A stretch of DNA of 64,000 nucleotides from Gammaproteobacteria bacterium (GCA_021774255.1 JAJFJF010000010.1:3947-67946), one strand, 5' to 3'; positions 34,597-39,002 are shown, counted from the first letter of the stretch. A program made the numbers and translations. The notes: generated by a model not told the origin, from the letters alone.

Positions 34597-35095
34597 AGTG
34601 TCTTTGGGAGGAAAGAAATCAATACAAATAGCAGACGTATATTATACCACACTCCCCGCTCAAAAAGAGCCCAACATGTCAAAATAAGTTCTGTGAAAAC
34701 AATACGCTATATTTTAAACACCCTGAAAAAAACAAACGTATTTTATTGCTGCTTTATCTCTGTCTTTTCTGCACCTCTTTTGCCGAATATAAAGTTATTA
34801 ATATAACTTAATTGTGCGGTTTTTTTAGATCTTGAATTCAGATCCCAAGTGCAATTTCTTTCTTGGCCTCAACTGGCCACTGCGACACTTCCTAAATGTT
34901 GCCGTTCAGATTTGAAGCCAAGGCTCAGGCTTTTAAAATAATGTTCTTTTGCCTATCAAGATAGCGTTATTCTTAAACATGATTCAGCAATATAAAAGTC
35001 TTCTTACGTTTGGGGCAAACATTCTCGTTAGTTATGTTTTATGCCTGAGATCACGCTATGTTGTCAGTACCGGCTATCACTACCAAACGCGCCTA

Positions 35096-36184
35096 TTAGT
35101 CTGCCCAATAAGGACGTGGAACAAAGCTTGCCTTGGGGGCGCTCTTCAAAAAGCTTTGTCGCACACGATCACAGTCAGCGGCGCCTTCTCCCAAATAAAC
35201 TTCCTCTAACTTTTTGCCGGTATTATCCGGGCAGCTGAAGTCACTGGTTAGCCCGTGGCAGCGGTACAAATACAGGCCCCTAAGCGACGGGCAGTTTTTC
35301 AAAAAACTTGCTACCGTTTTGTTGCCAATCTTTTCTGTCTTGCTGAAGACAAGCTTTCTGAGATCTCGACAAGTACCTGAGGGGCACTCGAAGTCAGCTG
35401 TTAGCTTGACTTCATATATGTTCAGCTCCTTAAGTTTTGGGCAGGCCTCCAAACAACTTCCTATCGCTTCGTTGCCAATCGCGATATACCCGCCGAAGAT
35501 AAGTACTTCAAGATGTTTGCCAGCACCCTTGGGGAAGCTAAAGTCAGCGGTTAACTTGCCGTGATATACCCGAAGATATTTAAGCCCTGGGGAGGCTCGC
35601 AAAAAACTGACCACCGCTTCGTCGCCAATCCCTCTTGTATCACTGAAGCCAAGCGTTTCGAGCAATTGACAAGCCCCCTCGGGGCACCTGAAGTCAGCAG
35701 TTAGACCGTGGCAGGAGACCAGTTCCAAATGCCTAAGTTTTGGGCAGGCCTCCAAGATGCTTTTCAATACCTTGTCCTTCCAAGCTACTTCGTTCAAAAT
35801 AAGCTTTTGAAGAGCTTTGCAAGTATTATCAGGGAATCGGAAGTCATCGCTTAAGGACACTCCACCATTCGCCTCCACTATTAACTCCTCAAGTGCTGGG
35901 TAGGCTTTGAGAAAATTTTCTAGCATTTCCTCGCTAAGCATGTTGCTGAGTTTAAGCACCCTAACTTTGCCAGACCCCTGGGGGCAGAAGCCAGGAGTTA
36001 GAAGATGGTAGGTCAAATCCAGTTCTGTAATCTCTGGGTTGTTTCGCAATATTTCATATAGCTCATTGTCAGTAATAAAGTGTGATTTATAAACGCCGTC
36101 AATGACCCGAGGCTTTTGGCTGTCAACGTCACTCCCTGTGCTAGTGCTCCCGTCATTGCCAGGGGGGCTTTGAGTCTTCCCCAT
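35096..36184 (-). CDS. Eukaryotic F-box/LRR_cc-type (Skp2/FBXL-like, cysteine-containing) leucine-rich-repeat protein; candidate effector
   Basis: Repeats of about 26 aa with LEACPKLRHLELVSCHGLTAD, LEACPKLKELNIYEVKLTAD and LKNCPSLRGLYLYRCHGLTSD are the LRR_cc subtype typical of eukaryotic F-box proteins. Confidence 0.65.
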   Translation of the reverse strand: MGKTQSPPGNDGSTSTGSDVDSQKPRVIDGVYKSHFITDNELYEILRNNPEITELDLTYHLLTPGFCPQGSGKVRVLKLSNMLSEEMLENFLKAYPALEELIVEANGGVSLSDDFRFPDNTCKALQKLILNEVAWKDKVLKSILEACPKLRHLELVSCHGLTADFRCPEGACQLLETLGFSDTRGIGDEAVVSFLRASPGLKYLRVYHGKLTADFSFPKGAGKHLEVLIFGGYIAIGNEAIGSCLEACPKLKELNIYEVKLTADFECPSGTCRDLRKLVFSKTEKIGNKTVASFLKNCPSLRGLYLYRCHGLTSDFSCPDNTGKKLEEVYLGEGAADCDRVRQSFLKSAPKASFVPRPYWAD

Positions 36185-36245
36185 TTTTATTGCTTTGTGT
36201 TTTTAGCTTATTAGGAAATGGCTTACAGAAAAGTATTTGGCGTTT

Positions 36246-36281
36246 CTATAGATATAGAGTAACACGAGCATGTAAATTTTT
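36246..36281. promoter_or_regulatory. Copy A of the shared effector-gene upstream motif CTATAGATATAGAGTAACACGAGCATGTAAATTTTT
   Basis: Lies 62 nt upstream of the LRR_cc gene start. In the gene direction it reads AAAAATTTACATGCTCGTGTTACTCTATATCTATAG, that is TTTACA-N16-TATCTA. Confidence 0.55.
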
Positions 36282-36507
36282 CGGTACGGAATATGTCAAT
36301 GAAAATGGGACACTTTTTTTGAGTTTAGTGTAGTAAATAACAGAATGTATACAAAGATTTTATCAAGACGCTTACAAATTAATTTCAAGGTGCGCACCTC
36401 TTGCGCATTTTTCAGAGTACGCTGTGGAGGGTGTGTGGCTTGCCAGATTTTCTGCTGCGCGATTACATTGGGACCACTAGCTCTGCACGGATTGATAAGA
36501 GGAATGC

Positions 36508-37746
36508 CTAGCGCTCTATTTCCCACAACGCTGACAGCGGCATGGCGTGTATTTTTTCGCCCATGGGAATGACTTTGTCGCCCAAATAGAGCACAACACC
36601 ACGATGAAAGTGTTCGGGATACTGCGATTGCAGTAGCTGCAAACCTGAAAGATGTTTTGAAGTGATGTTCTCAGAGACTTTTATTTCAATGCCGACTAGC
36701 TGACCATTTCTTTTTTCTAGCACTAGGCCAACTTCTTCACCATAGCTTGTACGGAAGTGATATAACTTCGGCAGTGTTTTGCTCCACGTGCACTGCTTTT
36801 TGATTTCCATGACAACAAAGTTTTCTATTAGGGCGCCAAGCACATGTCGTTGGGTGCTTAGATAATCGCCATCAACTCCCAGCAAATAGCAAAGTAGCCC
36901 AGTATCATTAAGATAGCCTTTGGGTGACTTAATAAGGCGCTTTCCAATGTTGCGCGACCAAGCAGGCAATTTCACCGTTAAAAAAAGCGTATCAAGCAAA
37001 CTCATGTAGCTTTTAAGTGTTGTGTTGGGGATCCCTAATGTGCGCGAAATATCCGCGGTGTTAATGAGCCCTCCCACTCGAGTGGCTAGTAAAGATAAAA
37101 GATCAGGAATTTGTGTTAGCCCTGAAATGTTTGCAAGATCGCGCACATCTTTTTCAAGCAACAAGGTAATATATGAGCGAAACCACGCTTCGCGCCGTTC
37201 TGGATCACGACGACTTACAACCTCAGGATAGCCACCCACTTGCACTTTATTGAGCAGTTCATCAAATCGAACACCCGGAATAGCATCCGGGATTTCTTCA
37301 CCAAATAGTGTGTCAACAAATGCTTCTTTTCGGCCAATCAATTCCCCTTGTGACAAAGGCCAAAGCGGATGGATTTCAATACGGCCTGCTAGCGAATCGG
37401 CAATTTTGGGGAGATCGAGCACATTGGCAGAACCTGTTAGTAAATACTCCCCTGGCTTTCGATCGTCATCAATTAGCTCTTTAAGCGCAAGAAAGAGGTT
37501 TTCTGCCCGTTGCACCTCATCAATGCCGACCGGTTTACTAAGGCTCTGTAAAAAGAGCTTAGGGGACTGTATCGCCCGATTAAGTACCGTGGCATCATCA
37601 AGGCTAAAGTAATGCCCAGCCTCCTTTCCTCCTAACAATGCTTTCATCAACGTGCTCTTTCCCGTTTGACGAGCACCGTTGATTAAGATCGCTGGCGTAT
37701 CGGCCAGCCCTTTTTGAATATCAGCAATAATATTTCGCTTAATCAT
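36508..37746 (-). CDS. AAA+ ATPase, DUF4143-type (COG1373-like)
   Basis: Walker A INGARQTGKST near the N-terminus, 412 aa. Typical stand-alone ATP-binding protein architecture. Confidence 0.7.
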   Translation of the reverse strand: MIKRNIIADIQKGLADTPAILINGARQTGKSTLMKALLGGKEAGHYFSLDDATVLNRAIQSPKLFLQSLSKPVGIDEVQRAENLFLALKELIDDDRKPGEYLLTGSANVLDLPKIADSLAGRIEIHPLWPLSQGELIGRKEAFVDTLFGEEIPDAIPGVRFDELLNKVQVGGYPEVVSRRDPERREAWFRSYITLLLEKDVRDLANISGLTQIPDLLSLLATRVGGLINTADISRTLGIPNTTLKSYMSLLDTLFLTVKLPAWSRNIGKRLIKSPKGYLNDTGLLCYLLGVDGDYLSTQRHVLGALIENFVVMEIKKQCTWSKTLPKLYHFRTSYGEEVGLVLEKRNGQLVGIEIKVSENITSKHLSGLQLLQSQYPEHFHRGVVLYLGDKVIPMGEKIHAMPLSALWEIER

Positions 37747-37845
37747 GATTGTATTTTAGCCAAAACACTGTTGTAATTCCACGGAAAATCCGTTAATTTA
37801 CAAAAACAGCCACAAGCATATGATTTTCAATAATTTTATTACTTG

Positions 37846-38655
37846 TCAGGATCTGAGAGATTTTAAAAATTTTGTGCGCGTATAAGCAACTTTAAAGCCA
37901 ACCTTCTCAGCATTGCACTGCGAAATACTGCCTGGCTCGGTAATGGCGGTGGCAATACGGCATCCTGCCGCTTTGGCACGATTAAGACGCGTATAGAGCA
38001 GCGCTTTTTGGATCCCAAGTCCGCGATGCGCAGGTAACGTGCTGGCATACCCTAAATCCGCCACATCCCCGTAAATACCCACCGCCGCGCCGCCCGCATA
38101 AACGGAGCCCGCCTGTGCTAAAAATAATTTTACGTTTGGAATGTTGGCAAAAATAGAAAAATCCCGCCGCTCGGCCTCGCCTGCCGGCGCCTCTTCAAAA
38201 AAACCAGGCAAGACGGTATCGCACCAGCGCTGCGTGTCTTCTGTTGGCGTAATGCTAAACGCCGTGCTGGGGCTGGCCTCGGGAATATCTTCATCTAACG
38301 GCAGATAAATGACGCTGGAATACTCTGCCACATGGTAATGCCGCTGGTTTAAAGCCTGTAAGAGACTCTCATCCGCAAAAGGGCTTAGCTCAACATGGCA
38401 ATCCATCCCTCTGTCTCGATAAAAGGCCTCAAGCTTATCAAGCTCACGGCTTGCCACAGGACCTGACAGCCCCGCGCCTAATAGCTGGCTTAAAAAAGAA
38501 TCTGTGCCCGCAAATGCCGCACACCCGCCCGCCACGTCAATGGCTTCTGCATTGAGCTCGGGGTGTAACTTCGCGGTTGTGGCCGCATGCAGTGCATGCA
38601 TATCAGCAAAAGCGCCTTCTAGCTTTTGAGAGAGTGCGTCATTAGCAAAAATCAT
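37846..38655 (-). CDS. GNAT-family N-acetyltransferase (C-terminal GNAT fold)
   Basis: C-terminal LGYASTLPAHRGLGIQKALLYTRLNRAKAAGC...CNAEKVGFK resembles GNAT motif A/B. Confidence 0.55.
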   Translation of the reverse strand: MIFANDALSQKLEGAFADMHALHAATTAKLHPELNAEAIDVAGGCAAFAGTDSFLSQLLGAGLSGPVASRELDKLEAFYRDRGMDCHVELSPFADESLLQALNQRHYHVAEYSSVIYLPLDEDIPEASPSTAFSITPTEDTQRWCDTVLPGFFEEAPAGEAERRDFSIFANIPNVKLFLAQAGSVYAGGAAVGIYGDVADLGYASTLPAHRGLGIQKALLYTRLNRAKAAGCRIATAITEPGSISQCNAEKVGFKVAYTRTKFLKSLRS

Positions 38656-38664
38656 ATTATTCCT

Positions 38665-38860
38665 TGTTCCACGTGAAACACTTGTACCTTTATTCTAATG
38701 TTGGGGCCAGCTCCTGTGGCCGCCCTTTGATAAGAGGGCGGGCCTGTCACCCTTTCAAGAATTTACGATTATATCAAAGATAGGACCCGTATCTGATCAT
38801 GAGGGTTGCCAACATTATCCCGGGATAAGAACACCGTGTTCCACGTGAAACATTTGTGGT
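38665..38860. repeat. Two direct copies of TGTTCCACGTGAAACA(C/T)TTGT (38665-38685, 38837-38860) flanking a hairpin-rich segment; a perfect palindromic version TGTTCCACGTGGAACA lies inside recF at 39781-39796
   Basis: Read directly. Copy 1 is immediately upstream of the GNAT RBS. Confidence 0.6.
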
Positions 38861-39002
38861 TCCGGCCTGAAAATATTGTTGTAGGGCGGCCTGCGCTCAC
38901 CCTTGGCAGAGAGAGGCGCGAGGCTCGATTTGCGGGCACGCACGGCGGCCCTACGGATGGTTTCTTGAGGATGCCGATATGGATGGGCACGGCGCCGCGC
39001 CC

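Follow-up and report, generated by a model that had tools for sequence, protein, structure and literature searches.

What lies between recF and gyrB in a gammaproteobacterial genome where the two genes stand 4.4 kb apart? We analyzed a 64 kb window (the whole stretch of DNA under study, from GCA_021774255.1; all coordinates are counted from its first letter) in which the interval 34597–39002 makes up the whole recF–gyrB gap, from the recF stop to the gyrB start. It holds genes for a tandem-GNAT acetyltransferase, an AAA ATPase with a DUF4143 domain, and a leucine-rich repeat (LRR) protein, together with a recF-proximal spacer that carries two predicted parS sites. Our preferred reading, to which we give a probability of roughly 60%, is that accessory genes entered the recF–gyrB junction piecemeal, beside a parS pair that replaced a parS site lost from the end of recF. 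The interval would then be a lineage-specific accessory interval within an origin-proximal replication operon rather than one mobile element, and its three genes—the tandem-GNAT gene, the PDC-S01 ATPase/nuclease candidate, and the orphan LRR gene—would most likely have been acquired one by one. As for parS, the site internal to recF would have been kept and the C-terminal one would have decayed, a duplicated extragenic pair downstream apparently taking its place. The components are all of known kinds (parS, PDC-S01, tandem GNAT, FBXL-type LRR), and it is their combination and position that are lineage-specific. Only one point is mildly new: a parS appears to have left the recF coding sequence and to persist as duplicated copies outside it, bordering an accessory interval.

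How unusual is this gene order? Pfam searches recovered the minus-strand series dnaA, dnaN, recF, GNAT gene, AAA_14+DUF4143 gene, LRR gene, and gyrB, which bears out the content, order, and strand given for the split in an earlier note on this DNA. In all 79 fetched loci in which both genes could be located, the distance from recF to gyrB is 12–178 bp and the 4.4 kb interval is absent; the gap is therefore unusual for the class. These comparison loci come from the closest retrievable genomes, which are Pseudomonadaceae-type and encode a RecF ~44% identical to that of the window. The earlier note had gone further, stating that gyrB directly follows recF in most bacteria. This was too broad, because dciA (DUF721), a small conserved gene, normally lies between the two in 15 of 23 phyla (PMC5109545); it is within Gammaproteobacteria, not across most bacteria, that recF and gyrB are as a rule directly adjacent. 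The dciA arrangement is alike in one respect, namely that the junction can tolerate an intervening gene in many phyla (PMC5109545). It differs in that dciA is a conserved replication gene, located elsewhere in Gammaproteobacteria, whereas the junction here is occupied by three unrelated accessory genes.

Four DnaA-box matches cluster at 42941–43039, at the 5′ end of dnaA, and place a predicted origin or dnaA promoter ~4 kb from the interval. Farther out, beyond dnaA, the gene order runs rnpA/rpmH–yidC–mnmE and then mnmG–rsmG–parA–parB. Taken together, the DnaA-box cluster and the flanking gene order identify the region as a canonical origin neighborhood. ParA, ParB, and RsmG are encoded at 51690–54119, ~14 kb from the interval.

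The spacer downstream of recF (38656–39002) had been described in the earlier note as repeat-bearing, and the repeat is real: a 24-nt direct repeat at 38662–38685 and 38834–38857, 92% identical between copies. Its role as a trace of insertion did not survive, however, because both copies contain the chromosomal parS consensus, TGTTNCACGTGAAACA, which is near-universal (PMC7022226). Allowing up to two mismatches, the 15-nt core of the repeat has six matches (three sites, each on both strands) against 0.11 expected, and the 64 kb window holds exactly three parS-type sites, two of them exact and one, inside recF at an offset of 421 nt from its start, with a single mismatch. With only three such sites in 64 kb, the spacer would hold two of the three sites of a likely centromere. 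Sites 1 and 2 are 172 bp apart, 323 and 151 bp past the recF stop, respectively; site 1 falls within the GNAT leader and stops 9 nt short of the ATG (which begins at 38655 on the minus strand), beside an AAGGAA ribosome-binding site. An origin-proximal position and a cognate parA–parB in the genome, as expected of a chromosomal parS, are likewise found here. Judged by their sequence, then, the spacer repeats are putative parS centromere sites, not insertion scars. Flanking bases (ACAA...GG) and an upstream motif, AAGGGTGA..CAGGCCCGCCCT (p ~0.01), are common to both extragenic units, which for this reason look like diverged tandem duplicates.

Related sequence patterns also occur in viral DNA. 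Among IMG/VR viral contigs, a 19-nt parS-type pattern, TGTTYCACGTGGAACAYGG, is present at 102 loci, none with a recF gene, at ~30 times the chance level by a rough estimate. Most of these loci are non-coding-looking contexts, and several near-identical groups recur across samples; they probably represent partition sites of phage-plasmids or host flanks.

Why would parS have been part of recF? In relatives, parS-like sites fall within recF because the residues (M/V)FHVEH are encoded by the palindrome TGTTCCACGTGGAACA. Such sites lie at offsets of ~420 and ~1050 nt in the recF of 80 relatives, with both present in 73 and one in the other 7, and the recF of Pseudomonas aeruginosa contains parS1 and parS2 (PMC5521831). 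At the C terminus, a motif of the type FHVE[HQ]G ends 112 of 119 RecF homologues. The tail of the window's RecF is degenerate, reading IFRVQDG (ATCTTTCGGGTACAAGAC) against MFHVEHG, and parS is no longer encoded there. This RecF has a further peculiarity: it is 44% identical to Pseudomonas RecF with a 43-residue gap (BLASTP), and residues 294–336 (39209–39338) form a unique, GC-rich, in-frame insert of 43 residues between the ABC signature region and Walker B. The insert is absent from all 119 homologues, which are 353–379 aa long.

The parS1–4 sites of P. aeruginosa offer the comparison for this arrangement. The same 16-bp palindrome family is clustered there at recF, a few kilobases from oriC; a site within recF has the same offset, and the recF-internal copy in the window has the P. 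aeruginosa form (PMC7022226). Intergenic sites stand beside promoters in P. aeruginosa and beside a putative one here, and in P. aeruginosa the promoters adjoining intergenic parS3 and parS4 are repressed by ParB (PMC5521831). The differences are threefold. The C-terminal recF site is lost here, with two extragenic copies instead; these copies follow the Bacillus-type consensus (GAAACA half-site), not the perfect Pseudomonas palindrome; and they edge a 4.4 kb accessory interval, which Pseudomonas does not have. By analogy with other ParABS systems, ParB encoded 14 kb away would load at the parS sites and spread over the neighboring cargo, and, as at parS3/parS4 of P. aeruginosa, it may damp a GNAT promoter between the two sites. 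An extended −10-like element, TGATATAAT (38768–38776, minus strand), does lie between sites 1 and 2, and its sequence suggests that this region could be the GNAT promoter. The remainder of the spacer contains three GTAGGG-headed, GC-rich palindromic arms (38881–39004) that resemble repetitive extragenic palindromes or bacterial interspersed mosaic elements (REP/BIME) in look. No further copies occur within the 64 kb window, and the 43-residue RecF insert shows no similarity to this REP-like spacer. At the opposite end of the interval, the AT-rich spacer upstream of gyrB presumably carries gyrB's own promoter; it contains one promoter-like match (35018–34989, minus strand) from a promoter scan that was not enriched over shuffles, the promoter and terminator counts being no higher than in shuffled sequence.

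Table 1. Features of the recF–gyrB interval and its surroundings, in window coordinates
Feature	Position	Strand	Basis or remark
gyrB, 805 aa, with GyrB_insert domain; downstream flank of the interval	32179–34596	−	Pfam
gyrB-upstream spacer, 499 bp, AT-rich (GC ~0.38)	34597–35095	−	Composition profile
Orphan LRR protein, 362 aa	35096–36184	−	Pfam LRR_At5g56370/LRR_4/LRR_6
AAA_14 ATPase + DUF4143 protein, 412 aa	36508–37746	−	Pfam: AAA_14 18–136, DUF4143 198–357
Tandem-GNAT acetyltransferase, 269 aa	37846–38655	−	Pfam Acetyltransf_1
Predicted parS site 1, TGTTCCACGTGAAACA	38665–38680		0 mismatches to TGTTNCACGTGAAACA
Predicted parS site 2, TGTTCCACGTGAAACA	38837–38852		0 mismatches to TGTTNCACGTGAAACA
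GTAGGG-headed inverted pair	38881–38954	−	Sequence, inverted-repeat search, RNA fold
GC-rich palindrome directly 3′ of the recF stop	38985–39002	−	Sequence, RNA fold
recF, 404 aa; upstream flank of the interval	39003–40217	−	Pfam SMC_N
Intragenic parS-like palindrome inside recF, TGTTCCACGTGGAACA	39781–39796		1 mismatch to TGTTNCACGTGAAACA; encodes VFHVEH
dnaN	40219–41391	−	Pfam
dnaA	41448–42980	−	Pfam
ParA	52349–53239
ParB, complete: ParB_N, HTH_ParB, ParB_C	53199–54119

Did the three genes arrive together, as the single cargo insertion that had been proposed? No sign marks the interval as one mobile element, and several results are evidence against it. Pfam and NCBIfam searches covering all open reading frames (ORFs) from 26329 to 43000 found no integrase, recombinase, or transposase within the interval or next to it; the cargo is not bracketed by repeats, direct or inverted; and the 4.4 kb interval has no DNA-level match to plasmids or phages. 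Rfam and tRNA scans returned nothing within it, and a tRNA-type integration site can be set aside because the only tRNA of the window is at 2512–2588. A search for flanking direct repeats yielded one significant pair, the parS-bearing repeat at one end, all other pairs being short and at chance level. Three intergenic gaps, of 99, 323, and 499 bp, set the cargo genes apart from one another and from gyrB and point to separate transcription units. The composition check suggested in the earlier note gave a divided answer: the cargo GC (0.45–0.52 against a window mean of 0.49) is ordinary, as is codon usage in the GNAT and AAA genes (z −0.5 and −1.2), whereas the LRR gene has atypical codon usage (z −2.4, the second most atypical in the window). 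What stood firm is the accessory character of the genes, since the AAA family is patchy, found on plasmids, and of PDC-S01 type, the GNAT gene is rare, and the LRR gene is an orphan.

Over its full length the AAA protein matches the PADLOC family PDC-S01 (PDLC04790, E 3.2e-151, residues 1–409 of 412). Its Walker A (G24–T32) and Walker B (D76–E77) motifs, read from the sequence, are both intact, and DUF4143 belongs to the PD-(D/E)XK nuclease superfamily (PMC3424549). PDC-S01 genes are reported to be among the commonest putative defense genes and to have been horizontally transferred across domains (PMC12988326). The AAA protein has homologues 44–48% identical to it on 408 plasmids of Pseudomonas, Azotobacter, Thermus, and rhizobia, and this patchy plasmid distribution of the family fits horizontal mobility. 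The gene shares with PDC-S01 (COG1373) its two-domain architecture, the intact Walker motifs, and a stand-alone, single-gene organization; it departs from the family in lying inside a replication operon, not in a recognizable defense island or plasmid.

The GNAT protein has only 44 detectable homologues, all at most 43% identical and mostly metagenomic; those with names include proteins of Legionella cardiaca and L. gresilensis. Four genomic contexts were examined, each of them away from recF. Its N-terminal GNAT domain is degenerate, and its C-terminal domain keeps the acetyl-CoA motif, in which R211 and G214 are invariant across a 43-sequence alignment. The AlphaFold model, built with an alignment (predicted local distance difference test score, pLDDT, 95.6), has a tandem-GNAT fold. 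Its top fold matches in the PDB are Legionella VipF (the best, E 4e-13), MAB_4324, and MshD, with a clavulanate tandem GNAT also among them. The Dot/Icm effector VipF, MshD, and MAB_4324 thus share with it a tandem-GNAT fold with an active C-terminal domain. Identity to VipF is only 13–18%, however, with a template modeling (TM) score of ~0.5, and there is no family membership at the sequence level.

For the LRR protein, a word-level homologue search found none, and an exhaustive phmmer search found 677 distant LRR proteins, the best 32% identical. The gene has 150-nt periodic repeats, corresponding to a 50-aa double-repeat period. Sequence comparison with the PDB matched FBXL2 (E 1.4e-6), and the closest solved relatives by sequence and Foldseek are FBXL2, FBXL17, TIR1, and MAX2. 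The likeness to FBXL proteins and plant TIR1–MAX2 lies in the cysteine-containing, ~25-aa LRR repeat type and the solenoid fold; the differences are that the window's protein lacks an F-box, begins with a 25-residue disordered segment, and is at most 33% identical to any protein. In the model (pLDDT 79), residues 1–25 are disordered and the solenoid runs from residue 28 to ~355. The label "F-box-like" given in the earlier note accordingly applies to the repeat type alone, which is FBXL-like: Pfam gave no F-box match at E ≤0.01, and the model contains no three-helix F-box. One of 10 distant LRR relatives examined has an F-box. The GALA proteins of Ralstonia are bacterial F-box–LRR effectors with the same repeat type. 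N-myristoylation of the N terminus (MGKTQSP) was considered and dropped, Lys3 and Pro7 violating the PROSITE pattern. We envisage that the cargo proteins would act independently, the AAA nuclease against invading DNA and the LRR and GNAT proteins as candidate host-directed effectors.

How close are the nearest relatives of this genome? The RecF, GyrB, LRR, AAA, and GNAT proteins are all singletons at 90% identity in a 15-billion-protein collection, and the next-best RecF in a protein search of 5.8 billion protein clusters is only 46% identical. Since five proteins are singletons and the next RecF is so distant, the source organism appears to be an unsampled lineage. Genome scans with RecF gave only matches ~44% identical, and a metagenome scan with the AAA protein gave one locus, at 29% identity.

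Several points weigh against piecemeal acquisition beside a relocated parS pair. There is no sister genome, so neither the direction of the change (insertion here or loss elsewhere) nor its timing is fixed. Neither GC content nor codon usage sets the GNAT and AAA genes apart from the window, which fits long residence or native origin. PDC-S01 is an ATPase–nuclease defense candidate put forward through "guilt-by-embedding," with experimental validation pending (PMC12988326). The suggested effector roles of the LRR and GNAT proteins would follow from fold resemblance (TM ~0.5) and eukaryote-like neighbor genes.

Could the arrangement instead be old and vertically inherited across an unsampled clade, the three genes being residents that were not acquired, the case which the earlier note itself named as refuting its view? 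The window-typical composition of the GNAT and AAA genes would suit such a history, as would the lack of mobility genes or scars and the integration of the parS pair into the GNAT leader; the genome carries many other eukaryote-like repeat proteins, moreover, with which an LRR gene is in keeping. We nevertheless consider it unlikely, if deserving of attention, because each gene family is patchy or rare and occurs in unrelated contexts elsewhere, the codon usage of the LRR gene is deviant, and PDC-S01 genes are documented as transferred across domains (PMC12988326). Another variant of the events, which strikes us as doubtful, gives parS the leading part in an "escape" from coding: the recF-terminal site (MFHVEHG) would have been duplicated extragenically, the recF tail freed to diverge, and a ParB-coated landing pad formed by oriC, where effector-like and defense genes gathered under ParB control, tied to the cell cycle or to origin copy number. 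A bolder version of this has the conserved parS palindrome itself serve as a recombination target for small elements.

A quite different interpretation takes the 24-nt repeats as att duplications, the displaced recF tails left by a single island or by small elements inserted serially and site-specifically at the recF 3′ end, each having brought a new tail for recF. It has a basis in the translations of the repeats, which on the recF strand read QMFHVEHGVLIPG and QVFHVEQGII, each followed by a stop, much like a RecF C terminus. A hidden Markov model (HMM) of 112 RecF C termini scores them at 16.5 and 17.6 bits (E <1e-3), against 17.9 bits for recF's own tail; like recF tails, both repeats show GG at +2/+3; copy 1 has a stop codon that overlaps the ATG of the GNAT gene; and the working tail of recF has degenerated. 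The HMM match extends, however, over no more than the ~12 residues for which the parS palindrome codes, and this palindrome, identical to the universal parS consensus, turns up in 102 viral contigs that have no recF close by. Both repeats, moreover, are on the same side of the cargo, so that they bracket only 172 bp and not three genes; the flanks of the recF tail and of the repeats have no similarity; and integrases and transposases are missing from the interval and its surroundings. As the main explanation, we rejected recF-tail relics of serial integration on the grounds that the core of the repeats is universal parS, that viral copies occur without recF, and that the cargo is not bracketed, and we regard att duplication as very improbable. 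Least credible of all is an assembly or binning artefact, in which a chimeric join would have put foreign DNA between recF and gyrB. The source is a single contig without close relatives, as such an error would allow, but composition is continuous over both junctions, canonical origin-proximal gene order is found on both sides, and the parS sites fit in function with the par and ori genes around them.

If piecemeal acquisition beside a relocated parS pair is correct, a conspicuous "insertion with repeats" by oriC would turn out to be a parS cluster plus ordinary accessory genes, and the value of the finding would be mainly corrective and contextual. The locus would also be a clean natural example of parS leaving the recF coding sequence, bearing on the co-evolution of coding and ParB-binding constraint. 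With a PDC-S01 candidate and two effector-like genes within a ParB-bound zone, it would further offer a case of ParB-dependent gene control outside Pseudomonas. In addition, the source organism stands out as belonging to a lineage not yet sampled, with a wealth of eukaryote-like proteins (LRR, ankyrin, GATA finger).

Some of these eukaryote-like proteins are encoded at a distance from the interval. Just past parB are an ankyrin-repeat protein (54323–55237, minus strand) and a second LRR protein, of the LRR_4/LRR_8 type (56568–57674, plus strand, GC 0.41). The two LRR genes of the window are not close paralogues, a comparison between them revealing generic similarity only. A 275-aa ORF at 5049–5876 (minus strand) contains a GATA zinc finger at aa 38–69 (PF00320, E 6.8e-12, 45 bits against a cut-off of 26.8); its codon usage departs further from the norm than that of any other gene in the window (z −2.55). 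Its product, a bacterial protein with a eukaryotic transcription-factor domain, may be a nucleus-targeted effector. The ankyrin, second LRR, and GATA-finger proteins of the window point to life in association with a host, where effectors of LRR and GNAT type are to be expected; this gammaproteobacterium is probably host-associated.

Other genes interrupt the origin block as well. Between mnmE and mnmG lie a DUF6088/AbiEi_3_N-like gene (47471–48100, minus strand, GC 0.39) and an MFS transporter gene (48470–49690, plus strand); as these split mnmE from mnmG, accessory genes appear to be generally interspersed in the origin block. On the far side of gyrB and convergent with it, three consecutive plus-strand ORFs (27725–32051; 500, 722, and 223 aa) have no Pfam or NCBIfam match. 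Still farther out, a plus-strand ORF of low GC (0.375) at 25315–26031, with DUF234 as its only match, resembles part of an ATPase gene of archaeal type; it is probably foreign.

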